Below are positions 8,829-56,354 of a DNA stretch of 64,000 bases, piece by piece. The notes under the pieces were generated by a model. That model did no database searches and was not told where the DNA came from. It was given only the letters and a program-made list of their open reading frames with translations. The DNA comes from Candidatus Kapaibacterium sp. (GTDB lineage Bacteria > Bacteroidota > Ignavibacteria > Kapaibacteriales > UBA2268). The position numbers and the translations under genes are program-made. Position 1 is the first letter of the stretch. Every line of letters starts with the position of its first letter. The DNA lies in the NCBI GenBank assembly GCA_026390695.1, contig JAPLFL010000101.1, forward strand, positions 3,674 through 67,673. Direction: 5' to 3'.

Positions 8829-8887
8829 CATTAGTTTATAAAGTTCATCAAGTGATGAAATGAAAAATTGAAAAATAGGGAGTAGTT

Positions 8888-9910
8888 ATGAGTTATCATA
8901 TTGATTATAAGAGGATTAATTGGTTAAGAAAACCAAGGAATTTGAAACTAATTCTTACTATACAACTAAGTGTAATTCTTATTTTGATAATTATAATGAC
9001 AAATTGCTTTAAAAAGCCACAAGAACCTATCCGAATCGGAATTAGCCCATGGCCTGGCTATGAACCTATGTTTTTGGCAAGAGAAAAGGGATACTTTTCC
9101 GAAAAAGATGTCAAGTTAATCGATTATACTTCAGTTACAGGCCAATCAAGAGCTTTCGTTAATGGAGCTGTCGATGCTGCTGCTATGACTCTTGATGTTG
9201 CAACCAAATTAAGAGAAAGCGGAGTCGATCTTAGAATTGTACTTGTCTTTGATGTTTCAAACGGTGGGGATGTTATTCTCGCAAATCCTGTATATCAAAC
9301 CTTAAAGGATCTAAAAAATAAAAAAATCGGTGTTGAGACAACTTCAATCGGTGATTATATGATTTCACGTGCTTTGGAATTATCCGGCATGAAACTTACG
9401 GATATTAAGGTTGTTCCTTTGGAAATTTCCGAACATGAAAGAGCATTTAAAGAAAAACGAGTTGATGCTATTGTTACTTATGAACCTGTCAAAACCAAAT
9501 TAATTGCTTACGGGGCTAATAAAATATTTGATAGTTCGCAAATACCGGGAGAAATAGTTGATGTTCTTGTTGTAAGAACTGATTATTTGAAAAAAGGAGA
9601 TAAACAATTAATCTCACTTTTAAATGGATGGTTCAAAGCATTAGGAGCACTAACGACAGATAGCTTAAACTCAATTCGTTTTATGGCTGCAAGGGAGCAA
9701 ATCTCCGATAAAGAATTTATTTTATCTTTGGAAGGGTTAACGATACCCAATATGCAAAGTAATATAATGCAGCTTGGTGGAGCAAATCCCGGACTGCTTG
9801 CACCTGCAAGACATCTTGAGAGAATAATGTATGAAAAGAAGCTCATCGAAGGTCGTGTGGACTTAGTTAAACTTTTTGATGCCTCATTTATTGAAAGGTT
9901 GACTAAATGA
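8888..9910 (+). CDS. Periplasmic substrate-binding-protein-like sensor partner (NMT1/SsuA/TauA-like fold). Its stop overlaps the start of the downstream kinase.
   Basis: N-terminal TM anchor; IRIGISPWPGYEP...KIGVETTSIGD pattern is typical of NMT1/SsuA-type SBPs; ATGA overlap at 9907. Confidence 0.55.
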   Translation: MSYHIDYKRINWLRKPRNLKLILTIQLSVILILIIIMTNCFKKPQEPIRIGISPWPGYEPMFLAREKGYFSEKDVKLIDYTSVTGQSRAFVNGAVDAAAMTLDVATKLRESGVDLRIVLVFDVSNGGDVILANPVYQTLKDLKNKKIGVETTSIGDYMISRALELSGMKLTDIKVVPLEISEHERAFKEKRVDAIVTYEPVKTKLIAYGANKIFDSSQIPGEIVDVLVVRTDYLKKGDKQLISLLNGWFKALGALTTDSLNSIRFMAAREQISDKEFILSLEGLTIPNMQSNIMQLGGANPGLLAPARHLERIMYEKKLIEGRVDLVKLFDASFIERLTK

Positions 9911-12663
9911 AAATATTAACTCTATTCCCATTACGCATCACAATACCATTATTTTTATTAATAACAGCGCTGGTTCTACTTGTTTTAACCGTTGAAAATA
10001 ATCTTCGTATATCTAATAAATATCTTGAAGAAAATGGAATTACTACACATATTCATGATATGACTATTTATCAGGGTATTTTCAATAATCTATTCCGTAA
10101 AGGCGATATTGAAGGCATTCAAGCTATTATAGCAGATATGGGATCGGAACCAAATTTAATTCATATTGCTTTGTTTGATCAATCTAACAAGATACTTTAT
10201 AGTAATGACTCTCATATTATCGGTAAATTAGTGCACGAAGTATTTGAAACAATTAACTTACAAACAATAGCGGATTGCAGGAAAAGCGGACGCGGGATTG
10301 TTTCGCTTTCAAGCACAGGTGATACTATTTCTGCCAACTATCCAATACTTATACACCCTCAAATTGAAGAAATGAAGCAAACTTCAGTTGCCGTGCTCCA
10401 CGTTTGTGTTGATCTATCAACTCCAAAAGCAAAGCTAAGATATGAAACATGGCAGCAACACTTTGTTTATATTATATATTCTATCATTATCTTCGTTATT
10501 CTCGGCTACTTATTACGTTTTGTTGTTTCCAAAAGAGCTGCCGAGCTTGTTGCAACTTCCCATAATTTCTCCGAAGGCGATCATTCCGTCCGCTCAAAGC
10601 TGCAAGGCAATGATGAACTTGCCCGAATTGCTTTTGCAATGAATCAAATGTTCGATCAAATCATTGCAAACCAAAACAAACTTAGCGAAAGCCAGCTTAA
10701 ATATCGGCAATTATTTGATAGCATCATGGATTCCTTCGTCCGAATGACGATTGACGGTAATATATTAGAATGTAACCCTTCTTTTGAGCTTATGTTGGGC
10801 TATTCACACGATGAAATCACAAATCTAACAAGTAAATCCATTACCCCTGATAAATGGTGGAAGATTGATTCCTCTTTCTTGCATGAAGAAATTCTTCCAT
10901 TCGGTTTCTCATCTGTTTATGAGAAAGAACTAATCAAGAAAGACGGCTCCGTAATCCCTGTTGAGCTTCGCACATTCAGTATAAGCAACGCTGTAAGCGG
11001 ACAATTATCGCTTTGGAGCATTGTTCGCGATATTACAGAGCGGAAAAAGACTGAACTAATTCTTCAGGAAAGTGAAACAAAGCTCCGTGCCATTTTTGAA
11101 AGCTCACGTTACGCTATCGGTGTTTCACTAAAAGGTATCCATGTCCTTGCAAACCCGTCCTATCTCAAATTATTCGGCTATGATAACATTGATTCCCTTA
11201 TCGGAACCTCTATTTTGGATAATATTGCTCCTGATTTCCAAAATGATATTATGCAAAAGATTCAATTAAGAGCAGCAAACAAGAATTTACCTTCTTTTTA
11301 CGAAACTCGTGGCCGACGAAACGATGGACATGAGTTTGATATGGAAGTTAATGTTTCGTCATACAATCTCCAAAACGAAAAATTCACTCTCGTTACTATT
11401 CGCGACATCACCGAACGCAAGAATTCCGAAGAATTACTCTTAGAACAGAATAAAAATCTTGAGGCGCAGTATGAAGAATACATGATTCTCAATGAAAAAC
11501 TTCGTATTATCAATTTTGATCTCGAAGCAGCAAAAGGAAAAGCCGAAGAAAGCGACAAATTAAAAACCGCATTCCTGCAAAATATTTCTCATGAGATTCG
11601 CACACCTCTCAATGGCATCATCGGATTCTCTAATTTACTTAATGAAGCTGATGTCTCCAAAGATGAAATCACAGAATATTCCTGCGTAATCAAACAAAGC
11701 GGTAAAAGATTAATTGAAATCGTTAATAATGTTATTGATATTTCTAAAATAGAAACAGGAATGATCGAATTAAACATCCAATCCTTTTCTCTAAATGCAC
11801 TTATCGAAGACCTATATGAATTTTTCCTGCCGATGGCAGAACTAAAAAGCCTCAAATTGAATTATATCATTCCCCAAAATAATGAAAGCTCAATTGTATC
11901 GGATGAATCCAAAATTGTTCAGATTCTTACCAATCTTATAAATAATGCAATCAAATTTACATTTGCCGGATCCATTAATTTTGGTTATAAAATCATAGAT
12001 GAACTTATACTTTTCTTCGTCGAAGACAGCGGAATCGGGATACCGGACGGTATGAACAATAGAATATTTGAACGATTCGTTCAGGTTGACCTTTCAATCA
12101 CCAGAGGATACGAAGGAGCCGGTCTCGGACTTGCAATAAGTAAAGGTCTTGTGGAATTATTGGGTGGTTATATTAGTTTTAAATCTGAACTAAACAAGGG
12201 AACTAAGTTTGAATTTTCAATTCCCTATTCCCCAATTCAGAAAACAAATAAACAAGAATCTCTGACAAAAGAAATAAGTATAGAATCCAATATTGAAGCT
12301 AAGATTTTGATTGCCGAAGATGATTTTACAAGTTTTAGGCTATTACAAACAAGTTTAAAAAATAAGAATTACGAACTTATATTAGCTGAAAATGGCCAAA
12401 AAGCTGTTGAAATGGTATTACATAATTCGGATATCGATATTGTATTTATGGATATAAGAATGCCAGTAATGGATGGCTTTGAAGCAACGAGACAAATCAA
12501 AAAATTACGCCCTCAATTGCCTGTTATAGCTCAGACAGCTTATGCTTTTAGCGAAGAAAAGATGCAAATAATGACAGCAGGATTTGACGATTACATTTCA
12601 AAACCTATTGATTTAAATAAAATTAAATTCCTAATCGAGAAATTCGTAAATAAACAAAAGTAA
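9907..12663 (+). CDS. Hybrid sensor histidine kinase with TM sensor region, HAMP, about 3 PAS domains, HisKA, HATPase_c and a C-terminal receiver.
   Basis: H-box SHEIRTPLNGIIGFSNLL; DSGIGIP and GAGLGLAISKG; receiver ILIAEDD...DIVFMDIRMPVMDGFEATRQIKK. Confidence 0.9.
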   Translation: MKILTLFPLRITIPLFLLITALVLLVLTVENNLRISNKYLEENGITTHIHDMTIYQGIFNNLFRKGDIEGIQAIIADMGSEPNLIHIALFDQSNKILYSNDSHIIGKLVHEVFETINLQTIADCRKSGRGIVSLSSTGDTISANYPILIHPQIEEMKQTSVAVLHVCVDLSTPKAKLRYETWQQHFVYIIYSIIIFVILGYLLRFVVSKRAAELVATSHNFSEGDHSVRSKLQGNDELARIAFAMNQMFDQIIANQNKLSESQLKYRQLFDSIMDSFVRMTIDGNILECNPSFELMLGYSHDEITNLTSKSITPDKWWKIDSSFLHEEILPFGFSSVYEKELIKKDGSVIPVELRTFSISNAVSGQLSLWSIVRDITERKKTELILQESETKLRAIFESSRYAIGVSLKGIHVLANPSYLKLFGYDNIDSLIGTSILDNIAPDFQNDIMQKIQLRAANKNLPSFYETRGRRNDGHEFDMEVNVSSYNLQNEKFTLVTIRDITERKNSEELLLEQNKNLEAQYEEYMILNEKLRIINFDLEAAKGKAEESDKLKTAFLQNISHEIRTPLNGIIGFSNLLNEADVSKDEITEYSCVIKQSGKRLIEIVNNVIDISKIETGMIELNIQSFSLNALIEDLYEFFLPMAELKSLKLNYIIPQNNESSIVSDESKIVQILTNLINNAIKFTFAGSINFGYKIIDELILFFVEDSGIGIPDGMNNRIFERFVQVDLSITRGYEGAGLGLAISKGLVELLGGYISFKSELNKGTKFEFSIPYSPIQKTNKQESLTKEISIESNIEAKILIAEDDFTSFRLLQTSLKNKNYELILAENGQKAVEMVLHNSDIDIVFMDIRMPVMDGFEATRQIKKLRPQLPVIAQTAYAFSEEKMQIMTAGFDDYISKPIDLNKIKFLIEKFVNKQK

Positions 12664-12690
12664 TTAGTTCATTTAAATCACCAAACCACC

Positions 12691-13908
12691 ATGAAAACAG
12701 AAAATATGACTTATGAAGAGCTTCTAAAATATAAATTAGCTCTCGATTCCTCAAGCGAATCCATATTCATCACTGCCCCGAATGGAATTATAACATACAT
12801 AAATCCTGCGTTCACCGATCTTTACGGTTATACCCCCGATGAAATAGTCGGCAAGCATACCCCAATTATTCTGAAGGGCGAAAAATCAAGTAAATTATAT
12901 AAAAAATTTTGGAAAAACATTGTTGAAGGAATGGCAGACAAATCCGAATACATGAATAAGACAAAAGATGGGAAGATATTGATTATTGAATCAACAACAA
13001 ACCCTTTTCTAAACGAGGAAAATCAATGCTTAGGGTTTATTTGCGTTCAAAGAGATGTGACAGACCGTAAAGATAGAGACGAAGAATACTCTTATTTGAT
13101 TTCGGAGCTAACTGTGTCAAGGGATATGATTGAAACAAACCTGTTTCAGACTAATGAATTGATAGAACAACTGTCTGAAACGCAGGAAGCCCTTGAAAAA
13201 ACTAATTCGGAGAAAGATAATTTCTTTTCAATTATTGCGCATGACTTGAAAAATCCGCTTGGAAACTTCAGAAATGTTACTGAGCTTTTGTCAGATTCTT
13301 ATGCAGACTTTTCGGAAAAAGATAGAATTGAGTTTATCGGATTAATGAACGATTCAGCCAAAAATATATATGCTTTACTCGAAAATTTATTAGAGTGGTC
13401 ACGTTCGCAAAGAGGGCAAATTCCGTTTCAGCCATTGTTATTTAATTTAAAAATGATGTCAATAGATATATTTAAATTAATGAAGCCGTCGGCAGATGCA
13501 AAAAATATAGAATTAATAAATCATATTCCGGTTAATTATGAGATAAATGCCGATCTAAATATGATAAATACAGTAATTAGAAATTTAATTTCCAATGCAA
13601 TAAAATTTACTCCGAATGGAGGAATGATTGAATTGGGATTAAAAAATATAAATGATAATAAGATTATGACGGAAGAATGTATATATATAAGGGATAACGG
13701 ATTAGGTATGAATAAGGAAATGTGTAATAAGTTATTCCGAATTGATACAAACGTAACTACTCCCGGAACAAATGCTGAAAAAGGAACAGGATTAGGGCTT
13801 ATATTATGTAAGGAATTTATTGAAAAGCACGGCGGAAAAATCTGGGTTGAAAGTGAGGAAGGCAAAGGAAGCACCTTTTATTTTACGATACCTAAAAGCA
13901 TAAAGTAA
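12691..13908 (+). CDS. Cytoplasmic PAS-domain sensor histidine kinase.
   Basis: PAS (ITYINPAFTDLYGYTPDEIVGK), H-box AHDLKNPLGNF, HATPase RNLISNAIKFTP...GTGLGLILCKEFIEKHGGKIWVES. Its kinase core is a close paralog of that at 14684-16429. Confidence 0.85.
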   Translation: MKTENMTYEELLKYKLALDSSSESIFITAPNGIITYINPAFTDLYGYTPDEIVGKHTPIILKGEKSSKLYKKFWKNIVEGMADKSEYMNKTKDGKILIIESTTNPFLNEENQCLGFICVQRDVTDRKDRDEEYSYLISELTVSRDMIETNLFQTNELIEQLSETQEALEKTNSEKDNFFSIIAHDLKNPLGNFRNVTELLSDSYADFSEKDRIEFIGLMNDSAKNIYALLENLLEWSRSQRGQIPFQPLLFNLKMMSIDIFKLMKPSADAKNIELINHIPVNYEINADLNMINTVIRNLISNAIKFTPNGGMIELGLKNINDNKIMTEECIYIRDNGLGMNKEMCNKLFRIDTNVTTPGTNAEKGTGLGLILCKEFIEKHGGKIWVESEEGKGSTFYFTIPKSIK

Positions 13909-13929
13909 ATTATTAAAAAGCCAATCAAT

Positions 13930-14200
13930 ACTTCAATAAAGCCTGTCATTCCTGCGGAAGCAGGAATCCCCAAAATAAACGAACCTGTCATTTCTGCAAA
14001 TGCAGGAATCCCCAAAATAAACAAGCCTGTCATTCCTGCGGATGCAGGAATCCCCATAATGAATAAACCTGACCATGCAACATAAACATGAAGCCAAAGA
14101 GAGAATCAAAAATGGGATTCCTGTATGCACAGGAATGACAGAAAAAATAGTGCTGTCATTCCTGCAGATGCAGGAATCCCCAAAATGAATAAACCTGACC
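13930..14200. repeat. Cluster of at least 5 copies of the GTCATTCCTGC(G/A)GA(A/T)GCAGGAATCCCC palindrome, including three 42-bp tandem units.
   Basis: Direct reading: CCTGTCATTCCTGCGGAAGCAGGAATCCCCAAAATAAACGAA repeats three times, followed by two inverted copies. Confidence 0.75.
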
Positions 14201-14377
14201 TTATAATAATGAAAAAAATAGCAAAACAAGGAAAAACAAATAAAATATATAAATAAATAAATATAAAAATGAAAATAACAGTCAATAGCATGCAATAGAA
14301 AAAACATAAATATATAATAATAAACAACTAATGAAGACAGGAAAAAATAAGAAATACAAAGGAAATCCAATAAATGA

Positions 14378-14526
14378 GCGCAGCGGAATTGTATTTAAGG
14401 ACAGCGGATTAGTATTTAAGGACAGCGGATATGTATTTAAGGACAGCGGATTTGTATTTAAGCGCAGCGGATTTGTATTTAAGGACAGCGGATTAATAAT
14501 TTAATGGAGCGGATTTGTATTAAAAG
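14378..14526. repeat. Tandem direct repeat, 7 x 21 bp, unit GACAGCGGATTTGTATTTAAG. It lies ~160 bp upstream of the GAF-PAS kinase gene.
   Basis: Seven consecutive near-identical 21-mers were read directly from the sequence. Confidence 0.85.
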
Positions 14527-14683
14527 AACTAATAATAAAAATAATGGATATAAAAACAAAAAATATGGAAATGGAATATAATAATAGAAATATAAAAAAA
14601 CAATAGTAAAAGAATAAGGAATAATAGATACAGAAAAAGAAAAAAATATACAGTTTATATACAAAATAAAAAGGGTAAGAATC

Positions 14684-16429
14684 ATGAAAAACATTATTAG
14701 CAGAAGAGAAGAAGAAAGAATAGCGGCATTAAAAAGCTATAATATCTTAGATACCTCTCCTCAAAAGATCTATGACGACATTACATTATTAGCATCTCAG
14801 ATTTGTGACACACCAATCTCTCTTATATCATTAATTGATGAAGATAGACAATGGTTTAAATCGAAGCAAGGTGTAGATGTGGAATCCACACCACGAGAGA
14901 TCGCATTTTGCGCACGGGCTATCGAGACTCCAGAGGAATTATTCATCGTTTCGAATGCAATGGAGGATGAACGATTTAAAAATAACCCATTAGTAACGGA
15001 ATACCCTTATATTAGATTTTATGCGGGCGCTCCACTTGTAACAAATGACGGTTATGCTTTAGGAACCCTCTGCGTTATAGATCGGGAGCCGCGTGTACTA
15101 AAACCGAAGCAGTTAGAAGCATTAACGGCGCTGCGCAATGGAATAGTAACTGCCTTTGAACTTGAACGGACTAACAGGTTTCTAAAAGAATCCGAAGAGA
15201 AGCAAAAGCAATTATTAGAGGAAACAGTGGAAAAAGACAATGCCACAAGATCAATTATCGAGTCTGCACCGAACGCAATGATTCTTATAGAAGCAAATGG
15301 AGTCATTAGAATGGTAAATATACAAACGGAAAAGATATTCGGCTATTTACGAGATGAAATTATTGGTAAGCAAATAGAAATATTACTCCCTCCGGAACAT
15401 TCTGACATCTTTATAAAGCTAAGAGAAACCTTTATAACCAAACCTTCTCACAAGGCAATAGGGTATGGCAGAACATTATATGGAATAAAGAAGGACGGAG
15501 TACGGTTCCCGATTGAAATAGGATTAAATCCTCTTTTAAATAAGGGGAAATTATGGATATTAGTATCAGTTATCGACATTAGTGAGCGGAAAAACCACGA
15601 TGAAAAGCAAAAAATATATCTTGAAGAATTAAAAGAGAAGAATGGAATCATAGAGCGCGGCTTAAATGAGAAACATGTATTAATCGGAGAACTGACTGAA
15701 GCTAAAGAAAAACTGGAAACTCTCAACGCAACAAAAGATAAGTTCTTTTCTATTATAGCGCATGACTTAAAAGGGCCATTAGGCAGCTTTAAACAAGTAA
15801 CTGAACTGTTAGCAGAATCATATTCCGAGTTTCCAGAGGAAGATAAAGTTGAATTTATCTTATTAATGAGTCAAGAATCAAAGAATTTATACTCTCTTCT
15901 TGAGAATTTACTTGAATGGTCACGGTCGCAGAGGGGGAATATCCCGTTTAACCCAGAGAAATTCAATTTAAAGATGATGTCAATCGAAATTATCAAACTT
16001 ATGAAGCCAACTGCCGAGAAAAAAAGGATTGAACTTATAAATCATATTCCCATTTCCTTAGATATAATAGCGGATGAAAACATGATAAACACAGTTATCC
16101 GAAATTTAATATCGAATGCCATTAAGTTTACACCCGATTGTGGAAGTATAGAACTGGGAATACGAGCTAAAACCACTGAGGAATTCAGTTCATCGGAGGA
16201 TTGTATTTTTATAAAGGACTCCGGGCTTGGTATGAGCCTTGAAACACGGGATAAATTATTCAGAATCGATACTCAGGTGACAACTCTCGGAACGAATTCG
16301 GAGAAAGGAACGGGTTTGGGATTAATTTTATGTAAGGAATTTATTGAAAAGCATAGTGGGAAAATCTGGGTAGAGAGTGAGGAAGGGGAGGGGAGTACAT
16401 TTTATTTCACAATACCAAGAAGAAAATGA
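14684..16429 (+). CDS. GAF-PAS sensor histidine kinase, paralog of the 12691-13908 kinase.
   Basis: N-terminal GAF-like region; PAS; H-box AHDLKGPLGSF; HATPase RNLISNAIKFTP...GTGLGLILCKEFIEKHSGKIWVES, near-identical to the 12691 gene. Confidence 0.85.
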   Translation: MKNIISRREEERIAALKSYNILDTSPQKIYDDITLLASQICDTPISLISLIDEDRQWFKSKQGVDVESTPREIAFCARAIETPEELFIVSNAMEDERFKNNPLVTEYPYIRFYAGAPLVTNDGYALGTLCVIDREPRVLKPKQLEALTALRNGIVTAFELERTNRFLKESEEKQKQLLEETVEKDNATRSIIESAPNAMILIEANGVIRMVNIQTEKIFGYLRDEIIGKQIEILLPPEHSDIFIKLRETFITKPSHKAIGYGRTLYGIKKDGVRFPIEIGLNPLLNKGKLWILVSVIDISERKNHDEKQKIYLEELKEKNGIIERGLNEKHVLIGELTEAKEKLETLNATKDKFFSIIAHDLKGPLGSFKQVTELLAESYSEFPEEDKVEFILLMSQESKNLYSLLENLLEWSRSQRGNIPFNPEKFNLKMMSIEIIKLMKPTAEKKRIELINHIPISLDIIADENMINTVIRNLISNAIKFTPDCGSIELGIRAKTTEEFSSSEDCIFIKDSGLGMSLETRDKLFRIDTQVTTLGTNSEKGTGLGLILCKEFIEKHSGKIWVESEEGEGSTFYFTIPRRK

Positions 16430-16550: not shown

Positions 16551-19500
16551 ATGAAAAAATACTCTGACATACTCTTGATTGAGCTTGTTCTACTATTCTT
16601 TTTAGTTATATCTTCCAAGCTCATTGCACAACCATGGGTTGAATCTCTGCCCCAGTCCGAAAGAAGCAACTTTAATTCAATTCAACAATCTTTTTATGAC
16701 TATGAAAAGCTGTTCGATGCCTCCCATCCTGAACCAATGAGCAAAACTAAGGGTTCCGGTTATAAGATATTTAAAAGATGGGAAAATTTCTGGCAGCCCA
16801 GAGTTTCCGCAGATGGCAGTTTCCCAAATTCAAATATCAATCAGACAGAACTGATCAAGTGGAATAAAAATAATCATAAGCAAAATAAAAATAATAAGCT
16901 TCAATCTGCCAACTGGGCTCCGATTGGGCCTTCAACAAGTTCCGGTGGCTATGCCGGCTTAGGCAGAGTAAACTGTGTTCGTGCTTTGGGAAGCGCTCCA
17001 AGCGTGATTTGGGCTGGTGCAGCGGCTGGAGGAGTTTGGAAAAGCCAAAATGGCGGCATATCATGGACTTGTATGCTCACAAATATTTCATCGCTCGGTA
17101 TTTCTGATATTGGCATTGATCCTACAAATTCAAATCATGTTTACATTGCAACCGGAGATAATGACCATAGCGATACCCGCTCAATCGGTGTTTACGAGAC
17201 TTCTGATGGTGGCGCCTCATGGAACCCGACTGGCTTATCATTTAATGAATCAAGTTATACTTTAATTTACAGGTTATTGATCCATCCGACTACTCCGAAC
17301 ATTATTTATGCTTCAACAAGTGTGGGTGTGTATAAAACTACTAATGGCGGCGTTAATTGGTCTAATATTTCATCTTATATTGGAAAAGACCTTGAGTTTA
17401 AACCTGGTGATCCCAATACGATTTATGGCTCATCAAATATTGTGTTCAGGACAACAGATGGAGGCACGAATTGGTCACAACTTACAACAGGACTGCCAAG
17501 TTCCGGTATCCAAAGAATAGCTATTGCAGTTACTCCGGCAAATTCGGCATATATTTATGCTTTAATCTCAAATGGTAATTCAGGATATTTGGGGATGTAC
17601 CGTTCTACCGATGCTGGCAATAACTGGGTATCACGGTCAACAAGTCCAAATATCCTCGACGGTACAACTAATGGTTCCGGTTCAGGTGGACAAGCTTGGT
17701 ATGATCTATGTATCGCTGTCTCAAATTCCAATGCTGAACTGGTTTTTACAGGTGGAGTAAATATTTGGAAATCAACAAACGGCGGACAGAACTGGACGAT
17801 TAATACTATGTGGTATGCTTACGGCTCATTGCCGACTGTTCATGCAGATCAGCATGAATTATTCTTTATTCCCGGAACAAGTACATTATTTAACGGAAAT
17901 GACGGTGGAGTTTACCGGACTACTGATTATGGTTCTTCGTGGACATGGATGGGAAATGATCTGCAGATTACTCAATTTTATAAATTAGGCATCACATCCA
18001 ATTCTCCGGTCATGGTTATCGCCGGTGCACAGGATAATGGAACAAAACTATATAATTCTGGCGCTTGGAATGATGTCAATGGTGGTGACGGAATGGAGTG
18101 TTTTATTGATTTTCAAAATAATTCCACAATGTACTGCACAACTCAAAACGGATCATTAAACAAATCAACTGATGGAGGAAATAACTTCTTTTCTATAAAA
18201 GGATCAATAGGTGAAAACGGAGCTTGGGTTACCCCATTTTTAATGAGTCCATCTAATAATAATGTCCTATTTGCGGGATTTGTAAATGTTTGGAGATCAG
18301 CAAATGGCGGAACTTCATGGTCAAAAATTTCAAGTTTCTCAGGAAGTTCCTTGAGTTTAGTTACGGTTGCTCCATCAAACGCAAATTATATCTGTGCCTA
18401 CGTAAGTTCCGTTATAAATAAAACTACAAACGGCGGAACAGCTTGGACAACAATAGCCTTACCTTTTGCTGGTAGTTTGACTGGTTTAATTTATAGTCAA
18501 ACCGATGCACAAAAGATGTGGGCAACATTTTCTGGTTATAGTTCCGGCAATAAAGTATTTTACTCTTCCGATGGCGGTAACAACTGGACAAATATATCGG
18601 CAAATTTGCCGAATGTCCCTGTCAATTGTGTAGTTTATCAGGAAGGGACTTCCGATATCGTTTTTGTCGGGACTGATATTGGTGTATTTACCTATGATCC
18701 TTCAATCGGGTCATGGCAAAGTTTCAGTGATAATATGCCAAGTGTAGTAGTTGATGACCTTGCGTATAATTATAATACAAATACACTTTATGCTGCAACT
18801 TTTGGCAGAGGAATCTGGTATAGTACAGTTCAGGTATCGCAGCCGATAAGTTCGTCAGTTTTGACGAGTTCCCTATGTTCCGGTACTTCTTTGAATGTCA
18901 ATTATCAGATTTATTCAACTTATAATAGCGGAAATATTTTCACAGCTCAGTTATCGGATGCAAGCGGGAATTTCACTTCTCCTGTAAATATCGGAACATT
19001 AACAACGACGAATGCAGGAACAATTAATGCAACAATACCGATAGCAACTTCAACCGGAACGGGATACAGAGTAAGAGTAACGTCTTCCAACCCGTCATCG
19101 GTTGGAACAAATAACGGATCGAATATTGCAATTTCTACTGCTCCAAATACTGTGATAAGAGGGAAAAATGTTGTTTGTAAGGGTGACATTATTACATTTA
19201 ATACAAGTGCTGCCAGTGGTGTAAATAATTTATGGTCTGTCACAAATGCTTTTGAATCAAGTTCAAATTATGATACAATCTACACTGTTCGTTTCAATAC
19301 TTTAGGTACTTGTAAAGTAAAACTAATTCAATCAGTGGGCACAAGTTGTTCTGACGCCGATTCGATGATTATTACAGTTTCTGAACGCCCTAATGCTTTG
19401 ATCAATGGAGAATTATCTGTTTGTAACGGATCGGAATCAATTTATACTTCAGCAGGAGCATCAGGATTTAACTCCACTTGGACAATAAACGGCGGAATAA

Positions 19501-20885
19501 CAAAAATCATTAACGATTCAAGTGTAACCGTTCAATGGTCTAATCCTGGAACCGGAACAGTAAAATTAGTCAGGAAAAATCTTATTAGCGGATGCTCAGA
19601 TTCAAGTTTACAGTATATTACTATTAATCCCCAGCCGACGGTTACTGTTAATGGAAGTCTTCAGGTATGCAAAAATAGTGTAAGTGTCTATAAATGCAAT
19701 AATGTTGTTGGAACGGTAAATTCTTGGACTGTTACCGGCGGAAAAGTTGAGAGTACGATTGGAGATAGTATTGCAAATGTGTTGTGGGATAACATTGGCA
19801 AAGGAACTATAACCGTTATTAAAGTCAATGGATTAACGTCATGTAATGATTCAGCTGTAATAAATATTACTATTAATAGTAAGCCAGTTGCAACGATGAT
19901 GGGAGCCGTTTCTACTTGTGTGGGGACAACAGAAAATTATTCATCGACATTAACAGCCGGACAGACCACCCAATGGATTATAACAGGCGGGACTATTCTT
20001 GGGAATCCAACTGATCCAAATATCAAGATACTTTGGAATAATGCAGGGGCAGGGACTGTAAAACTAATAGTGAACGCTCTGGGCGATGGTTGTTCAGATA
20101 CTATTTCCAAATCAATAACGGTTAATCTTAAACCAATTCCACAATTAACTGGTAATTCAAGTGCATGCTTAAATGATTCGGTAACTTATAATTTTAATGG
20201 GGTTGCCGGAATTATATCTGATTTTATTTTAACAAATGGGAAAATTCTTTCAAAAACTTCAACCAGTTTACAAATCCAATGGAATCAAGTTGGTGCAGGA
20301 TCTATCAAACTTATTCAGACAAATGCCACGACGTCATGTAAGGATTCAATAACTTCCAATATAACGATTTATGATAATCCACCTAAGCCAACAATATCAC
20401 GTTCACTTGATACATTAATATCGAGTTCTGTTTCAGGAAATCAATGGTATATTGATGGTCAGAAATATAACGGAGCGACTTTTAGAATTTTTCTGCCTCC
20501 CATCAGAGGTTTAGTAACTTTAATAGTAACGAATCAGAATGGATGTGTTTCAGTGCGATCGGATGAATATAATTTCAGGCCGGGCTTAGTACAAGGTGAG
20601 ATAATTCTCTCTTTTATTGAAAATATAAGTATCTATCCTAATCCGGCAGATAAAATTGTAAATATAAGTTTCGATCTTAGTCACGATGAGATAATAAATA
20701 TTAAGATTCTGGATGTTTTAGGCAGAAATGTGAAGACATTTCCAAATATATTATACAATTCAGGTAAGATCAATTTAATCTGGGATTGCACAAACGGATC
20801 AAACACAAAAGTCGATGCGGGAGTATATCTTATAAATTTTGAAACAATATACGGGAAATATTCGCAAGCAGTGATTGTAAATTGA
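16551..20885 (+). CDS. Large secreted BNR/sortilin-like beta-propeller protein with several Ig/PKD-like repeats and a T9SS (Por) C-terminal sorting domain.
   Basis: Signal peptide; at least 10 S/TxDGGxxW BNR motifs; repeated ~90-aa Cys-containing Ig-like modules; type-A CTD at the C-terminus (IYPNPADKIVNISF...). Confidence 0.85.
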   Translation: MKKYSDILLIELVLLFFLVISSKLIAQPWVESLPQSERSNFNSIQQSFYDYEKLFDASHPEPMSKTKGSGYKIFKRWENFWQPRVSADGSFPNSNINQTELIKWNKNNHKQNKNNKLQSANWAPIGPSTSSGGYAGLGRVNCVRALGSAPSVIWAGAAAGGVWKSQNGGISWTCMLTNISSLGISDIGIDPTNSNHVYIATGDNDHSDTRSIGVYETSDGGASWNPTGLSFNESSYTLIYRLLIHPTTPNIIYASTSVGVYKTTNGGVNWSNISSYIGKDLEFKPGDPNTIYGSSNIVFRTTDGGTNWSQLTTGLPSSGIQRIAIAVTPANSAYIYALISNGNSGYLGMYRSTDAGNNWVSRSTSPNILDGTTNGSGSGGQAWYDLCIAVSNSNAELVFTGGVNIWKSTNGGQNWTINTMWYAYGSLPTVHADQHELFFIPGTSTLFNGNDGGVYRTTDYGSSWTWMGNDLQITQFYKLGITSNSPVMVIAGAQDNGTKLYNSGAWNDVNGGDGMECFIDFQNNSTMYCTTQNGSLNKSTDGGNNFFSIKGSIGENGAWVTPFLMSPSNNNVLFAGFVNVWRSANGGTSWSKISSFSGSSLSLVTVAPSNANYICAYVSSVINKTTNGGTAWTTIALPFAGSLTGLIYSQTDAQKMWATFSGYSSGNKVFYSSDGGNNWTNISANLPNVPVNCVVYQEGTSDIVFVGTDIGVFTYDPSIGSWQSFSDNMPSVVVDDLAYNYNTNTLYAATFGRGIWYSTVQVSQPISSSVLTSSLCSGTSLNVNYQIYSTYNSGNIFTAQLSDASGNFTSPVNIGTLTTTNAGTINATIPIATSTGTGYRVRVTSSNPSSVGTNNGSNIAISTAPNTVIRGKNVVCKGDIITFNTSAASGVNNLWSVTNAFESSSNYDTIYTVRFNTLGTCKVKLIQSVGTSCSDADSMIITVSERPNALINGELSVCNGSESIYTSAGASGFNSTWTINGGITKIINDSSVTVQWSNPGTGTVKLVRKNLISGCSDSSLQYITINPQPTVTVNGSLQVCKNSVSVYKCNNVVGTVNSWTVTGGKVESTIGDSIANVLWDNIGKGTITVIKVNGLTSCNDSAVINITINSKPVATMMGAVSTCVGTTENYSSTLTAGQTTQWIITGGTILGNPTDPNIKILWNNAGAGTVKLIVNALGDGCSDTISKSITVNLKPIPQLTGNSSACLNDSVTYNFNGVAGIISDFILTNGKILSKTSTSLQIQWNQVGAGSIKLIQTNATTSCKDSITSNITIYDNPPKPTISRSLDTLISSSVSGNQWYIDGQKYNGATFRIFLPPIRGLVTLIVTNQNGCVSVRSDEYNFRPGLVQGEIILSFIENISIYPNPADKIVNISFDLSHDEIINIKILDVLGRNVKTFPNILYNSGKINLIWDCTNGSNTKVDAGVYLINFETIYGKYSQAVIVN

Positions 20886-20920: not shown

Positions 20921-21255
20921 GATCGTTTCCTACTTGAAGGCTGTCATTCCTGCGTATGAGCCTGTGTGAAAACATCAATTTCTTGTCATTCCTGCGCATG
21001 CAGGAATCCCCTGATTGGCACTGGAAGGAGATTCCCGCATTCGAGCCTGTGTGAAAACATCAATTTCTTGTCATTCCTGCGCATGCAGGAATCCCCTGAT
21101 TGGCACTGGAAGGAGATTCCCGCATTCGAGCCTTGTGAAAACATCAATTTCTTGTCATTCCTGCGCATGCAGGAATCCCCTGATTGGCACTGGAAGGAGA
21201 TTCCCGCAGTGCGGGAATGACAAGAATTCCTAATTCATTAAGGAAATGATATAAA
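20921..21255. repeat. Three tandem ~85-bp copies of the palindromic element, with a composite flank ending TTAAGGAAATGATAT.
   Basis: Unit starts at 20962, 21047 and 21131; the core is GTCATTCCTGCGCATGCAGGAATCCCC. Confidence 0.8.
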
Positions 21256-21366: not shown

Positions 21367-22029
21367 CTATCTCTGCTCGGTATGGATTTCCTTTCCAAAT
21401 AGAGCTGAGGATTTCTGTTTAAAGCAGTCCCCGAATAAAAATACTACCAATATGATATACAATACAAAACCTATAAGGATTAGCCAATGTGCAGCTCCGG
21501 TTTTCTGAATTTCATGCCGCGATTTAATATCGCAAATTTCTCCAGGACAATGTTGAGCTTTTCCTTTATATATTAGATTATAAACTTTACACCCGATACA
21601 AATTCCAAACGCTGATTCAAAAAATAAAAAAATAAGACAGATCATGCAGATTATTCCGGTTATCGGGCTATAGGTATTCATTACAACAGAAAAGATAAAC
21701 ATTATGCTAACTAAAAATATTCCGATTATCCATGCGAATTTTTTCTGAACAGCCCCAACATATTCAGGTGTTTGATTTCTTACTATCAACCTGCCCAATA
21801 TCAAGGTAGGTGAAAATCTGGGATTGACTAAAACACGGATTAAAATATCCATAAAAAAAATTACTATTGCATATTTTAAGAGAACAAAATTTCCTCTCAT
21901 TGCTGCCTGAGACACTGCAATAAACATTAGTACAAATAACATTCCGGCAGCAGCACGTATTTCTCGTTCATTAAGCACTGGAATTGTGTATCCCTCAACG
22001 TCTTCACCAAATTTGAAAATTTTAGACAT
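21367..22029 (-). CDS. Polytopic membrane protein, possibly DUF4395 family.
   Basis: Four to five hydrophobic helices and a CxGCKVY...HCPGEIC cysteine cluster; the family assignment is from memory of DUF4395 N-termini (FGExVEGY...LNEREIRA). Confidence 0.45.
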   Translation of the reverse strand: MSKIFKFGEDVEGYTIPVLNEREIRAAAGMLFVLMFIAVSQAAMRGNFVLLKYAIVIFFMDILIRVLVNPRFSPTLILGRLIVRNQTPEYVGAVQKKFAWIIGIFLVSIMFIFSVVMNTYSPITGIICMICLIFLFFESAFGICIGCKVYNLIYKGKAQHCPGEICDIKSRHEIQKTGAAHWLILIGFVLYIILVVFLFGDCFKQKSSALFGKEIHTEQR

Positions 22030-22329
22030 TTTAAACTCCTTCGATAGATTTAGGTTTTATTTTTCATTAAAATCAATTTTTATAATAAAATCAGAATTTA
22101 AATTTGAATCCATAATATATCTATTTAATTGTTAATTATTTAATACAAAATTAGATAATTTTTGGTTAAAGTGCAAATAAATTGTAATATTGGGATTAGG
22201 TCTATGGATTTGAAACCGCTTATTGCATGATTTCGGGTTTACATTTGAGTGTTTTCTTATGCTTTTCAAACATCTTCTATAATATTGTGTAATTAAATAT
22301 TGTGATAATTTACAAATTGATAATTTATT

Positions 22330-22360
22330 GTCAAAAATAATTCGTAAATTTGTATAAGTG
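22330..22360 (+). promoter_or_regulatory. Candidate Bacteroidetes-type sigma-A promoter (-7 TAAATTTG, matching TAnnTTTG).
   Basis: TAAATTTG at ~22347-22354, with TTG ~19 bp upstream, in the AT-rich spacer before the cytochrome-like gene. Confidence 0.3.
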
Positions 22361-22391
22361 GATTTTTGTATTTGAAAATTTAGGTGTTCTG

Positions 22392-23570
22392 ATGAAAATA
22401 TTTTATTCTCTTATGTTGCTGGTACTGGTAGCTACTATCGCCGTATTCAGTATTAATAACAATTTAGCTCTCAGCAACGATAGAACTTTGATAAACGCTA
22501 CAGATTCAATATGCTTCAATAAAGATATTTTTCCTCTGTTTTATTCTTACTGCGCAACCAGTGGCTGCCATGACGCAGTTACCAAGAAAAAAGGAGTAAA
22601 TGTCACTTCATATACTTTAATAATGAGAGGAATTCAGGCAGGTAATCCAAACTCAAGCTCTTATTATACCGAAATGTTCGATGGAATGCCACCAAACGGA
22701 TATCCTCAAATGTCCGCTGCCCAACTCAACATAATTCAAAACTGGATTCTTAACGGAGCAAAAAATGATTCTTGTCAAACAAAAAATTGTGACACTACAA
22801 ATATAACTGTCTCAGGTACAATCCAATCAATTGTAAAGACTTATTGCATCGGTTGCCACTTTAATAACAAAGGAGGCGGAGGTATAAATTTAAGCACTGA
22901 TCAGTTTATCAAAGATAATTCTATCGCAATTTATGGCTCAGTTTATCACTTGAATGGATTTAAACCAATGCCACCAATTGGATTGGTCGATGATTGCAAT
23001 AAATTAAAAATCAAACTATGGGCTAATGCCGCAAACAGTACTCCATGCGATTCTTCAAACGTTACTTATTCAAAATCCATTCAACCGATTTTACAAAAAT
23101 ATTGCGTAAGTTGCCACAATTCAACAACTACCAAAGCAGGATTAAATTTTACGATCCAAGCACAGGTTCAAACAAATATTGACAGAATCCACGGAGCCAT
23201 CTTTCATTTAGACGGATATTCTCCAATGCCCCCAGATTCTTCAATTATTGTTGATCCATGTTCCTTGGCTCTGGTAAGAATATTTGCCTCTAAATCAGGT
23301 GTTCAACAATATGATAACAGCAGTTTTTCTGTTAGACCTAATCCATCGAACGGAAGTTTTAGCTTTATTTTACCTAACACAATACTACCGGACTTTTCAA
23401 TAGAAATTATTGATCAGACTGGATCAATAGTGGATATTATTAATTCCGAAAATTGCAATTCCAAAAGTTCTGATATAAGATATAGCAAAGAATTAGCACA
23501 GGGATTATATTTTGCAAGATTGCGTTCCGGAAATGATGTGTTTTACAGAAAATTTTTAATAATAAAATAA
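22392..23570 (+). CDS. Secreted triple PSCyt1-like (Planctomycete cytochrome C domain) c-type-cytochrome-like protein with a T9SS C-terminal sorting domain.
   Basis: Signal peptide MKIFYSLMLLVLVATIAVFS. There are three ~75-aa repeats, each with a heme motif (CATSGCH, CIGCH, CVSCH) followed by GG(I/L)N(L/F) and ...MPP...(L/I)xxWxxxGA. The CTD reads RPNPSNGSFSFILP...YFARL. The ORF-track start at 22350 is probably an upstream extension. Confidence 0.65.
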   Translation: MKIFYSLMLLVLVATIAVFSINNNLALSNDRTLINATDSICFNKDIFPLFYSYCATSGCHDAVTKKKGVNVTSYTLIMRGIQAGNPNSSSYYTEMFDGMPPNGYPQMSAAQLNIIQNWILNGAKNDSCQTKNCDTTNITVSGTIQSIVKTYCIGCHFNNKGGGGINLSTDQFIKDNSIAIYGSVYHLNGFKPMPPIGLVDDCNKLKIKLWANAANSTPCDSSNVTYSKSIQPILQKYCVSCHNSTTTKAGLNFTIQAQVQTNIDRIHGAIFHLDGYSPMPPDSSIIVDPCSLALVRIFASKSGVQQYDNSSFSVRPNPSNGSFSFILPNTILPDFSIEIIDQTGSIVDIINSENCNSKSSDIRYSKELAQGLYFARLRSGNDVFYRKFLIIK

Positions 23571-23602: not shown

Positions 23603-24739
23603 ATGGCAGGTATATATATACACTATCCTTATTGCCAGAAGAAATGCTTCTATTGCGATTTTTTTAGTGTTACCGACAAAAGCTCTGACAATAAATTTAT
23701 TGCTGCCCTGTTAAAGGAGATTGAAAATAAAACTGTGTGCCAACGAGAAATGCCACCTGCCGATACTATATATTTAGGTGGTGGCACTCCATCTCTTCTT
23801 TCTGTTAAAAATCTCGAAAAAGTACTAAACAAACTTCATAATAACTTTAATATTGTTTCAAATGCAGAAATTACATTAGAAGCAAATCCGGGAACATTAA
23901 CAAAACAAAAGATTAATGAATTTCTCACCCTTGGTATAAACCGTTTAAGCATTGGAATACAAAGTTTTAATAATGATGAACTGATTTTTCTACAACGAAT
24001 TCACAATGCTGCTACTGCAAAACAAGCAATCAACGATGCAATCGATGCTGGATTTGAAAATATTAGCATTGATCTTATTTTTTCGATTCCAAATCAAACA
24101 AAAGAGCTGCTTAAATACTCCCTTGAAACAGCTGTGGATTTTCCTATTCAGCATATTTCTGCTTATAGCTTGATTTTTGAACCTCAAACGCCTCTTTACG
24201 ATGCTATGGAGAAAGGTGAAATAATTCCAATGCCCGAAGATGATGATTCTGATTTGTATGCTTATCTAATTGAGTTCCTTGGAGAAAATGGTTTCGAGCA
24301 ATATGAGGTATCTAACTTCGCTCGAAATGGAAATAAAAGCAAACACAATCTAAATTATTGGAATAATGGTGAGTTTTATGCGTTTGGACCATCTGCTGCG
24401 GGATATGTAGGAGGATATAGATATAAGAATTTCTCAGATATTGACAAATATATTGAATATATAGATAATAATGAATCTCCTGAAGAATATCGGGAAGAAA
24501 TTACTTCTGAGAAAGTCCAACAAGAACAAATTTTTCTGCCCCTGCGAGCTGAGGGAATATCTTTTGAGATTATTAATTCAGTAAATGATGAAAAGAAAAA
24601 TACTAAAGCAATGAATTTTATCAAAGAATTAATGGATCATAATTTAATGATAAGCAAAGATAATCGCTTTAAACTCACTTCTAAAGGCTACATGATCTGT
24701 GATGAAATCACCGCAAGGCTAATGAATATCATTTTCTAA
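23603..24739 (+). CDS. hemW: Radical-SAM heme chaperone HemW (HemN-like coproporphyrinogen dehydrogenase family).
   Basis: YIHYPYCQKKCFYCDF CxxxCxxC radical-SAM motif; GGGTPS; HemN C-terminal-like domain. Confidence 0.85.
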   Translation: MAGIYIHYPYCQKKCFYCDFFSVTDKSSDNKFIAALLKEIENKTVCQREMPPADTIYLGGGTPSLLSVKNLEKVLNKLHNNFNIVSNAEITLEANPGTLTKQKINEFLTLGINRLSIGIQSFNNDELIFLQRIHNAATAKQAINDAIDAGFENISIDLIFSIPNQTKELLKYSLETAVDFPIQHISAYSLIFEPQTPLYDAMEKGEIIPMPEDDDSDLYAYLIEFLGENGFEQYEVSNFARNGNKSKHNLNYWNNGEFYAFGPSAAGYVGGYRYKNFSDIDKYIEYIDNNESPEEYREEITSEKVQQEQIFLPLRAEGISFEIINSVNDEKKNTKAMNFIKELMDHNLMISKDNRFKLTSKGYMICDEITARLMNIIF

Positions 24740-25708
24740 AATTTTAACTACTAAATCCACAGCTTTTTCCCAATTTGCCTTATTTACTAAAACTGATTGC
24801 TCAACTAAAGGATTTAAAAATAAAGTTTTGGCTGCTTCGTAATCCCTTTGCATCAGTTTCGTCGTCGCTAAAATATATAATCGCATTCCTTCAAGGTTAT
24901 TATCATCAGAGTTAAAGGCAAGCCAATGATTTATTTCCGCATATTGGTCATTTGCAAGGCATATTTGGGCAAGTCTGATTAGTGTTCTCTGAATCTGATC
25001 AGCTGATAATTGTGCTGAATCTGTTATCTGATTATATAATCTATACGCTTCATCATTATTTGCAAGCGCAAACTCCGTTTCTGCTAAATGGTATTTCAAC
25101 CAATCATCTCCGGGATTCATTTTTATTTCATTTAACAGCATTTCACGATTTCTTTCGCCCTTTTCTCTTTGATTTGAGGAATATCCATAATGATAAATTT
25201 TAATTTCTGTATCAATTATATCATATCCCGCTTCTTCAATCGACGGTCGAATTTGTTCGTGGATCGTTCCGGTGAATTTAAACGCCGGATTATTCCTAAA
25301 TATACGTGTATATCTATGCTCAGTTTCAATTAAACTATCGCTATCCTTCATTATATTTATAAGTCGGACATTTATTGCATGATTATTTGGATTTTTTAAT
25401 AATTCTAAATGCTCTTTTATTGAATCTAATTCAATTGCTTCATCAGAATCGAGTATAATCACCCAATTGCAACGACATAATCTTAGTGCATAATTCCTTG
25501 TAGCAGAAAAATCATTCACCCACTTATAAAAATGAACTTCCGCACCTAATCTTGTACATATTGCAACAGTATTATCGGTCGATCCGGTATCAACTACAAC
25601 AATTTGCGTTACTAATTCCTTCATCGAATTGATAGCTCTGCCAATAGTAGCTTCATTATTCTTGGCTAAAATTATAATTGAAATAGTTGCTTTAGTTGCT
25701 GTTTTCAT
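24719..25708 (-). CDS. Family-2 glycosyltransferase with a C-terminal TPR-like region. Its 3' end overlaps hemW by 21 bp convergently.
   Basis: IIILAKNNEATIGRAINS...VVVDTGSTDNT...ILDSDE DxD-type GT2 signature. Confidence 0.75.
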   Translation of the reverse strand: MKTATKATISIIILAKNNEATIGRAINSMKELVTQIVVVDTGSTDNTVAICTRLGAEVHFYKWVNDFSATRNYALRLCRCNWVIILDSDEAIELDSIKEHLELLKNPNNHAINVRLINIMKDSDSLIETEHRYTRIFRNNPAFKFTGTIHEQIRPSIEEAGYDIIDTEIKIYHYGYSSNQREKGERNREMLLNEIKMNPGDDWLKYHLAETEFALANNDEAYRLYNQITDSAQLSADQIQRTLIRLAQICLANDQYAEINHWLAFNSDDNNLEGMRLYILATTKLMQRDYEAAKTLFLNPLVEQSVLVNKANWEKAVDLVVKILENDIH

Positions 25709-40364: not shown

Positions 40365-40454
40365 AAATATATTTTTGAAGTCTATTAATTTATTTACAAT
40401 ACATATAAATTATCATCGTCATCATCTCCGCAATTGACATATTTATTAATGTTG

Positions 40455-40620
40455 CCGAAATTCATGCAAAAACATGAATGCGGGGGAACCACTACCGGGG
40501 CGAATTCTCATAGTTCAGAGAAAGGATACTTCCAAATCCGAGCCCGTCAGCTAACCTCGTAGGCTAATGGAAGAGCATTGGACAGACAATTACCACTGCC
40601 CTTGCTGCTGTGGTTTTTTT
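40455..40620 (+). ncRNA. Candidate ydaO-yuaA (c-di-AMP) riboswitch with an intrinsic terminator, in the 5' leader of the KimA-like gene.
   Basis: Ordered conserved-looking blocks GGGGGAACC, GGGGCGAAUUC and CCCGUCAGCUAACCUCGUAGGC, with nested pairings CUUCCA/UGGAAG and AGCC/GGCU. The terminator is AACCAC-loop-GUGGUU plus U7 at 40592-40620, and AACCAC also occurs at 40486, allowing anti-terminator competition. Family assignment is from memory of the ydaO consensus. Confidence 0.5.
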
Positions 40621-56104: not shown

Positions 56105-56354
56105 TAACTTATATTTATATATTTAACTACCATTACAAAATTATGAAATATTTTGCAAAAATTAGAATACTTCTCAAAATATTTATTTATTATTGTCTTG
56201 AAATATCATGCACTCAGACTATTTTATAACTTAAAAAATCCAAAAATAGAAATCAAAGTTGAAAATTTTTATTTGCTTTCAATTACTTTTATTCTTATAT
56301 TTGAATTGTTCGTTTTATAATGAATATTTATTAATCATAAAGATTGGAGGCTTT

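Follow-up and report, generated by a model that had tools for sequence, protein, structure and literature searches.

In model organisms, extracellular cytochromes reach the cell surface through type II secretion or as lipoproteins. MtrC and OmcA, deca-haem lipoproteins with bis-His ligation that travel by type II secretion, and Cyc2, a porin-cytochrome, exchange electrons at the outer face of the outer membrane. The known cargo of another route, the type IX secretion system (T9SS), comprises proteases, nucleases, adhesins and glycoside hydrolases. Here we analyse a gene of Candidatus Kapaibacterium sp. whose product (392 amino acids (aa); hereafter the target) differs from such cargo by its three haem c motifs, which precede a T9SS type A C-terminal sorting domain (CTD). 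The gene lies in a stretch of 64,000 nucleotides (GenBank assembly GCA_026390695.1, contig JAPLFL010000101.1), referred to below as the window. We consider it very likely, from the sequence, that the target is a T9SS-tagged c-type cytochrome. Its proposed role is like that of MtrC, OmcA and Cyc2. It is unlike the first two in haem number, ligation and export route and, unlike Cyc2, it has neither a barrel of its own nor an adjacent porin.

The closest solved cytochrome is FoxE of Rhodobacter ferrooxidans SW2 (5MAB), an Fe(II)-oxidizing dihaem protein with His/Met ligation and a stabilizing disulfide (PMC10654088). A profile of the target's family searched against all PDB sequences ranked FoxE (E 4e-6) above the haem domain of hydrazine synthase alpha, with PccH next, the FoxE alignment passing through the segment 'PG(D/N)P..S...RMPP...WIxxGA'. 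The similarity of sequence and fold to FoxE is remote and covers one domain. The His/Met haems and disulfide of FoxE parallel the invariant Met-Pro and the Cys pair present in each repeat of the target. FoxE, from Proteobacteria, has two haems, resides in the periplasm and shares its operon with foxY (a pyrroloquinoline quinone (PQQ) protein) and foxZ (a transporter), whereas the target has three haem sites, one of them CX4CH, as well as a T9SS CTD and no foxYZ neighbours. Since operon and architecture both differ, the target is not FoxE proper. PccH of Geobacter sulfurreducens (4RLR, PF22297), which is linked to electron uptake from electrodes, is a monohaem, periplasmic, single-domain protein with no CTD; its Pfam family scores 21.5 bits on the target, below the cut-off of 24.4. 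The top match among NCBIfam models is the LIC11213 lipoprotein family of Leptospira (NF047812). All three repeats align to this 118-position model, with 47.7 bits against an equivalog cut-off of 100, and relatives of the target score 34-72 bits. The target is not a LIC11213 equivalog, because its score is under the cut-off and it has no lipobox.

Haem motifs, leader and sorting domain

The haem-attachment motifs of the target are C54ATSGCH60, C152IGCH156 and C238VSCH242, each followed 41-45 residues on by MPP, with a regular spacing from Cys to Met (C54/M99, C152/M193 and C238/M279). They lie in three tandem repeats, R1 to R3 (Table 1). A preliminary description of the locus, made from the sequence by itself, had proposed three such repeats of ~75 aa; motifs and repeats are real, and the length needs correction to ~87-92 aa. 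R2 and R3 are the most alike (BLASTP E 2e-22, 34% identity over 82 aa), followed by R1 and R3 (E 9e-9) and R1 and R2 (E 3e-3). Judging from these alignments, R3 is a duplicate of R2. Compared with R2 and R3, the CX4CH motif of R1 simply has two residues inserted, and CX4CH is an accepted haem c attachment motif, found for example in cytochrome c3.

Conservation extends well beyond the attachment sites. Residues C54, G58, C59, H60, M99, P100 and C128 of R1 and C133, C152, C155, H156, M193, P194 and C202 of R2 are invariant in 15 homologs, and in an alignment of 53 sequences the haem Cys and His residues and the Met-Pro are still invariant or nearly so. The check on the CxxCH motifs that the preliminary description had suggested, conservation in orthologs, thus comes out in favour of haem attachment. 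From the same pattern, the Met of each MPP is likely to be the sixth haem ligand. One extra conserved Cys pair per repeat (Table 1) probably forms a disulfide within each domain.

The preliminary description called the protein a 'triple PSCyt1', after the 'Planctomycete cytochrome C' domain of Pfam, a name that the papers found to mention PSCyt1 use just as a domain label. Scanned whole, the target does pass the PSCyt1 model (PF07635; 36.3 bits, cut-off 22), as well as Cytochrome_CBB3 (44.4 bits, cut-off 27). No repeat scanned singly reaches either cut-off, and R2 and R3 match PSCyt1 at its CXXCH end only (Table 1). R1, which aligns to nearly the full PSCyt1 profile, is the most PSCyt1/FoxE-like of the three, and the target is without the PSD1 and PSCyt2 partner domains of the large planctomycetal proteins. 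A first structure model, built from 15 sequences, gave a predicted local distance difference test (pLDDT) score of 69.6 for the cytochrome part, and Foldseek matched its CTD only; the model was rebuilt with 53 sequences. The fold of the target matches two solved c-type cytochromes, FoxE and PccH. Identities as an MtrC/OmcA-like, NrfH-like or cytochrome c7-like protein were rejected as sub-threshold, chance-level matches around CXXCH (Pfam Mtrc-MtrF, 13.9 bits, cut-off 30). Scores above cut-off and motifs conserved in homologs bear out a c-type cytochrome with three haem-attachment motifs. By sequence, the target is a member of the cytochrome c superfamily that ends in a type A CTD for T9SS.

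Both ends of the protein point to export. The N terminus, MKIFYSLMLLVLVATIAVFS, read by inspection, has the features of the Sec signal proposed earlier: K2, a hydrophobic stretch at residues 5-19 and no lipobox cysteine. Residues 2-21 form a helix in the first structure model. Homologs have a lipobox where the target has this plain Sec-type leader. At the C terminus, residues 316-390 pass both curated models of the sorting domain, PF18962 (Por_Secre_tail; 35.3 bits in the whole protein and 38.8 alone, cut-off 27) and TIGR04183 (32.2 bits, cut-off 23), in agreement with the type A assignment of the preliminary description. The best PDB matches of the C-terminal beta-sandwich are CTDs of proven T9SS substrates, namely the type A cargo proteins RgpB, mirolase and Flavobacterium johnsoniae NucA. 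The NucA CTD in its T9SS complex (8glk_D) was matched with E 8.9e-4 and a target template-modelling (TM) score of 0.72, and further matches were 8qb1 and 7pq4; these Foldseek results come from the first, lower-quality model, in which pLDDT in the CTD region is ~67-85. The CTD also aligns with those of four other proteins encoded in the window, keeping the motifs PNP, I-x-I-x-D..G, G-x-Y-F-x-(K/R)-L and K-x-x-(I/V)-(I/V). These four are a 1444-aa Sortilin/BNR-repeat protein, a 716-aa protein without another Pfam domain, a Laminin_G_3 protein and a VWA protein (Table 1). Four further CTD proteins within 64 kb indicate heavy use of T9SS by the source genome.

The open reading frame (ORF) spans 22350-23570 (+) from a TTG start, and an in-frame ATG at 22392 gives the 392-aa product. 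This product is identical in sequence to NCBI entry MCX6154854.1, 'T9SS type A sorting domain-containing protein [Candidatus Kapabacteria bacterium]'; the TTG-start version, of 406 aa, is called in a second, independent assembly. The 362-bp spacer upstream is likely to be the promoter region of the gene. The Bacteroidota-type motif TAnnTTTG occurs 91 times against 87 expected, and so its copy at 22345 supports the ATG start only weakly. Scans for sigma-70 promoters and terminators gave counts like those in shuffled sequence.

Family members and their gene neighbourhoods

The family profile, searched against 1.84 billion cluster representatives, retrieved 859 at E<=1e-30, 7,944 at E<=1e-10 and 36,871 at E<=1e-3, the last tier probably including other cytochrome c domains. 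Most of the best 150 matches fall into three length classes: 230-260 aa with two repeats, 320-350 aa with three and 420-450 aa with four. Members typically combine a single CX4CH repeat of the R1 type with one or more CXXCH repeats of the R2 type. Of the 208 family proteins that were retrieved, 131 start with a lipoprotein signal that has C-(K/R/T)-H-(E/D)-P after it, and in 189 the C terminus comes directly after the last WIxxGAxNN; ~95% are lipoproteins without a CTD. Small size and independence from giant proteins, which had been thought unusual, are therefore nothing of the kind, since small lipoproteins of two to four repeats are the norm among the members inspected. As read from these sequences, the rare feature of the target is the CTD, which replaces the lipobox. 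The family is large and uncharacterized, and Pfam covers it only partly, through PSCyt1 and Cytochrome_CBB3.

CTD carriers among the 208 proteins form only four clusters at 90% identity: the target (three haem motifs), P0019 (seven; an Ignavibacteria metagenome-assembled genome (MAG)), P0164 (six) and P0165 with its cluster members (six; Ca. Kapaibacterium and the Bacteroidota MAG SSF3). P0019 shares 40% identity with the target, and the two proteins are collinear from the leader through R1-R3. Two more CTD-bearing members, each of 305 aa with two haem motifs, came from a scan of species-representative genomes. The CTD of one (locus L011, an Ignavibacteria MAG) scores at the thresholds, with 27.2 bits against 27 for PF18962 and 27.1 against 23 for TIGR04183; that of the other (L015, MAG SSF3) falls below them, with 18.6 and 18.8 bits, respectively. 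Only a handful of CTD-bearing members were thus found, all from MAGs of Kapabacteria or Ignavibacteria. Across all six, haem motifs and MP motifs agree in number (2, 2, 3, 6, 6 and 7), and every CTD-bearing member has a non-lipoprotein leader in which the lipobox Cys is lost. From sequence comparison, this subfamily seems to have changed its sorting route once, after which the R2 repeats expanded and contracted in number.

Relatives of the target recur in particular gene neighbourhoods. In Bacteroidia, lipoprotein members stand beside YceI and a DUF5777 'membrane bound beta barrel' protein in at least 12 independent loci (Table 1), often together with a Rieske lipoprotein, an oligonucleotide/oligosaccharide-binding (OB)-fold (tRNA_anti-like) protein and a 129-aa single-repeat member. 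No mention of DUF5777 was found in the open-access literature searched. At one of these loci (L001), a gene for an extracytoplasmic function (ECF) sigma factor lies upstream.

In Kapabacteria, four loci (L015, L045, L046 and L047) have in common a same-strand cluster encoding, in order, a lipoprotein, a 390-430-aa predicted outer-membrane barrel, a membrane protein of ~100 aa, YceI and a Rieske-like protein with a twin-arginine-like leader. The lipoprotein, of 200-240 aa, has one C-terminal family repeat, with the haem motif CLSCH, CLGCH or, in L045, CLAACH, and in three of the four loci the end of its gene is overlapped or abutted by the start of the barrel gene. A two-haem cytochrome with a CTD ends the cluster in two of the four, L015 and L045. 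All 120 homologs of the barrel have exactly one CXXCH, near the N terminus, and 108 of the 120 end in Tyr. This barrel family is widespread in MAGs of Kapabacteria, Ignavibacteria and Chlorobi; it matches no Pfam family and is annotated 'hypothetical' throughout. The features that define Cyc2 iron oxidases are a signal peptide, one CXXCH, fusion to a porin and a length of at least 365 aa (PMC8406198). The barrels near the target's relatives have the same architecture and are in this respect Cyc2-like. The tie of the family to outer-membrane barrels, YceI and Rieske proteins, together with the functions of its closest solved relatives, suggests a role in electron transfer at the outer membrane.

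Proposed role and competing explanations

We propose that the target would be exported by Sec and would receive covalently attached haem in the periplasm, at one CX4CH and two CXXCH sites. The folded holo-protein would then cross the outer membrane through T9SS by means of its type A CTD, which would be removed, leaving the cytochrome anchored at the surface or released. T9SS moves folded cargo, and so export of a haem protein by this route would be mechanistically unsurprising. Built from three monohaem domains of ~88 aa that are FoxE/PccH-like and PSCyt1-related, the target would most likely act at the surface as a short electron-transfer module, whose exchange partners would be extracellular donors or acceptors (for example, Fe(II)/Fe(III) and humics) or a conduit in the outer membrane. 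A part in surface electron transfer or redox sensing can reasonably be read from the CTD. At the level of sequence and fold, the proposal is founded on conserved motifs and repeats, on the CTD, on the kinship in fold with FoxE and PccH and on the genes that surround relatives; from these we infer haem loading, export, surface location, the direction of electron flow and the physiological partner. A secreted three-haem cytochrome, routed by T9SS and engaged in surface electron transfer, is the best explanation of the locus as a whole, one for which we hold belief and doubt in equal measure. Taken by itself, a role in electron transfer at the cell surface or outside the cell is a tentative assignment, on which doubt is slightly the heavier.

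Several points weigh against this proposal. The window contains no haem-porin, YceI, DUF5777 or Rieske gene, so that the target is not physically linked to a conduit, and its immediate neighbours, encoding a DUF4395 protein, HemW and a family 2 glycosyltransferase with a tetratricopeptide-repeat tail (GT2-TPR), say nothing about a redox function. T9SS machinery genes are likewise missing from the window, and none of its 40 ORFs of at least 120 aa is a cytochrome c maturation gene; if the model is right, both sets must lie elsewhere in the genome. In His/Met monohaem domains strung together like beads, the distance between haems may be too great for electrons to pass quickly from one domain to the next. 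Finally, there is no precedent: the open-access literature searched contained no report of a T9SS cargo protein with covalent haem c, nor any that links T9SS with c-type or multihaem cytochromes or with CXXCH. Two known parts are joined here, on sequence grounds, in a combination that seems not to have been reported before.

A wider reading would place the target's subfamily within a larger system. T9SS-exported strings of two to seven FoxE-like haem domains in Kapabacteria and Ignavibacteria would form the outer end of a new electron conduit of Fibrobacteres–Chlorobi–Bacteroidetes (FCB) bacteria, together with the Cyc2-like haem-porin, YceI, a periplasmic Rieske protein and lipoproteins of the family. 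We regard this extension as doubtful.

Among the alternatives, the one that survives best keeps secretion and changes the partner. The target could be a T9SS-secreted cytochrome serving another secreted enzyme, which may be an oxidase, peroxidase, dehydrogenase or polysaccharide-active redox enzyme, or detoxifying extracellular oxidants, outside respiratory or lithotrophic electron transfer. High-potential His/Met cytochromes are typical soluble enzyme partners, and the separation of the target from any conduit gene fits such a function. Moreover, many T9SS cargo proteins in the lineage are degradative enzymes, four other CTD proteins are encoded in the window, and carbohydrate-active enzymes (CAZymes) of M. 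roseus bear Por CTDs (PMC3534657). However, no candidate enzyme is encoded next to the target in the window or at the loci of its CTD-bearing relatives, and the only recurrent partners of the family are the barrel, YceI and Rieske proteins. We therefore think an enzyme partnership or detoxifying function unlikely on balance.

The target might instead have the periplasmic role of its lipoprotein relatives, its CTD being non-functional or a mere tether to the inner face of the outer membrane. The preponderance of lipoproteins that end after the last WIxxG and have no CTD is what such a role would lead one to expect, as is the lack of T9SS genes in the window, and the CKHEP-like residues that follow the lipobox in relatives are no clear match to the acidic surface-export signal of Bacteroidota. 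Yet the CTD passes two curated thresholds, keeps its motifs and has the fold of proven substrates. It also always accompanies loss of the lipobox Cys, a pattern better matched by a change in how the protein is sorted than by a tail in decay. A periplasmic role is hence improbable.

The preliminary description had also drawn attention to hemW, which does follow the cytochrome gene directly (Table 1). The two genes are on the same strand and the gap of 32 bp holds no predicted terminator, which allows co-transcription, and some T9SS cargo proteins of Porphyromonas bind haem. On these grounds the target could be secreted in order to bind or scavenge haem, and be expressed in step with the chaperone. 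This is very improbable. By tblastn, hemW is missing from all 43 related loci, including that of every other CTD-bearing member, where the gene tables list unrelated neighbours. HemW is a cytoplasmic haem chaperone with no part in cytochrome c maturation, and CXXCH with Met-Pro in a FoxE/PccH fold argues for covalent, permanent haem and not for reversible binding. Since hemW is absent from the related loci and its product is cytoplasmic and outside cytochrome c maturation, the adjacency is probably coincidental, at most reflecting co-transcription. The last possibility, that the cysteines are structural disulfides or metal ligands and no haem is bound, could appeal to the less common CX4CH spacing in R1 and the two further conserved Cys in each repeat, and we give it almost no credence given that both Cys, the His and the Met-Pro after them are invariant, that cytochrome hidden Markov models (HMMs) score above cut-off, that the fold matches two solved c-type cytochromes, that CX4CH is itself a haem c motif and that the extra Cys pair parallels the FoxE disulfide.

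Window features and implications

The gene divergent from the cytochrome gene encodes a DUF4395 membrane protein whose C-terminal stretch is rich in Cys (GICIGCKVY...HCPGEIC). Its family, too, is found at none of the 43 related loci by tblastn, and both it and hemW are rejected as functional partners on this count. The GT2-TPR gene is convergent with hemW and overlaps its 3' end by 21 bp; its product scores 80.9 bits against the SunS-family peptide S-glycosyltransferases, below the cut-off of 350.

Just downstream of the gene for the 1444-aa T9SS cargo protein, an 85-bp unit is repeated three times in tandem, the second and third copies being 95% and 82% identical to the first. Each copy contains the palindrome TTCCTGCGCATGCAGGAA, and an inverted arm related to this palindrome follows the array. 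The repeats have no Rfam match. Elsewhere in the window, a cyclic di-AMP (c-di-AMP) riboswitch immediately precedes a gene for an amino-acid permease. Genes for PAS/GAF hybrid histidine kinases and an NMT1-like binding protein are densely clustered, and a MASE1-PAS-GAF kinase is encoded separately.

Table 1. Coordinates of features in the window; positions preceded by a locus handle are those of related loci.
Feature	Position	Strand	Details
Gene for the 392-aa T9SS-tagged three-haem c-type cytochrome (predicted)	22392..23570	+	Stop codon included; based on ORF, NCBI identity and Pfam scores
Sec-type signal peptide (predicted)	22392..22472	+	~Residues 1-27, without lipobox Cys; sequence inspection
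Repeat R1	22503..22778	+	Residues 38-129; CX4CH motif nt 22551-22571; M99-P100; flanking Cys pair C41, C128; alone: PSCyt1 13.9 bits (profile positions 3-58 of 59), Cytochrome_CBB3 15.1 bits
Repeat R2	22779..23039	+	Residues 130-216; CXXCH motif nt 22845-22859; M193-P194; Cys pair C133, C202; alone: PSCyt1 13.9 bits (profile positions 1-23 of 59), Cytochrome_CBB3 22.4 bits
Repeat R3	23040..23306	+	Residues 217-305; CXXCH motif nt 23103-23117; M279-P280; Cys pair C219, C290; alone: PSCyt1 18.2 bits (profile positions 1-24 of 59), Cytochrome_CBB3 18.1 bits
T9SS type A C-terminal sorting domain	23337..23567	+	Residues 316-392; motifs PNPS, IEIID..G, GLYFARL, RKFLIIK
Divergent intergenic region, likely promoter region of the cytochrome gene	22030..22391	.	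362 bp, AT-rich; TAAATTTG element at 22345-22352
hemW, radical SAM haem chaperone	23603..24739	+	TIGR00539 320.8 bits (cut-off 205.4); 32 bp downstream of the cytochrome gene
DUF4395 membrane protein	21367-22029	-	
GT2-TPR glycosyltransferase	24719-25708	-	
T9SS type A CTD protein, Sortilin/BNR-repeat	16551-20885		1444 aa
T9SS type A CTD protein, no other Pfam domain	36469-38619	-	716 aa
T9SS type A CTD protein, Laminin_G_3	49333-51768		
T9SS type A CTD protein, VWA	54200-56104	-	
85-bp tandem repeats	20946-21199		Three copies
Inverted arm related to the repeat palindrome	21211-21226		
PAS/GAF hybrid histidine kinase cluster with NMT1-like binding protein	3963-16429		Kinases of 1621, 918, 405 and 581 aa
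c-di-AMP riboswitch (RF00379)	40443-40580	+	91.6 bits (gathering score 38)
Amino-acid permease gene	40660-42642		
MASE1-PAS-GAF kinase	56259-59663		1134 aa
Bacteroidia YceI/DUF5777 loci	L001 8001-11892; L004 7571-10569		At least 10 more (L012, L014, L016, L020-L022, L025, L029-L031)
Kapabacteria modules	L045 6301-11145; L015 4730-8915		
Haem-porin (barrel) genes	L015 4730-5938; L045 7001-8170; L046 7001-8257; L047 7001-8290		

The analysis exposes two unannotated features: FoxE/PccH-like lipoprotein cytochromes, which form a very large family and have a conserved neighbourhood of YceI, barrel and Rieske genes, and a Cyc2-like haem-porin family in Kapabacteria. Even if the function of the target proves ordinary, two misleading cues are corrected, the 'Planctomycete' domain label and the adjacency of hemW. 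Bioanodes and Fe(III) dosing have repeatedly led to enrichment of Ignavibacteria and Kapabacteria, according to published reports. Were the conduit reading true, T9SS would take the role that type II secretion has for MtrC and OmcA, and these FCB bacteria would be able to oxidize Fe(II) or to exchange electrons with the exterior in some other way. A c-type cytochrome routed by T9SS would, if true, represent a new class of T9SS cargo with covalent haem and would offer a concrete molecular way into how Ignavibacteria and Kapabacteria exchange electrons outside the cell.

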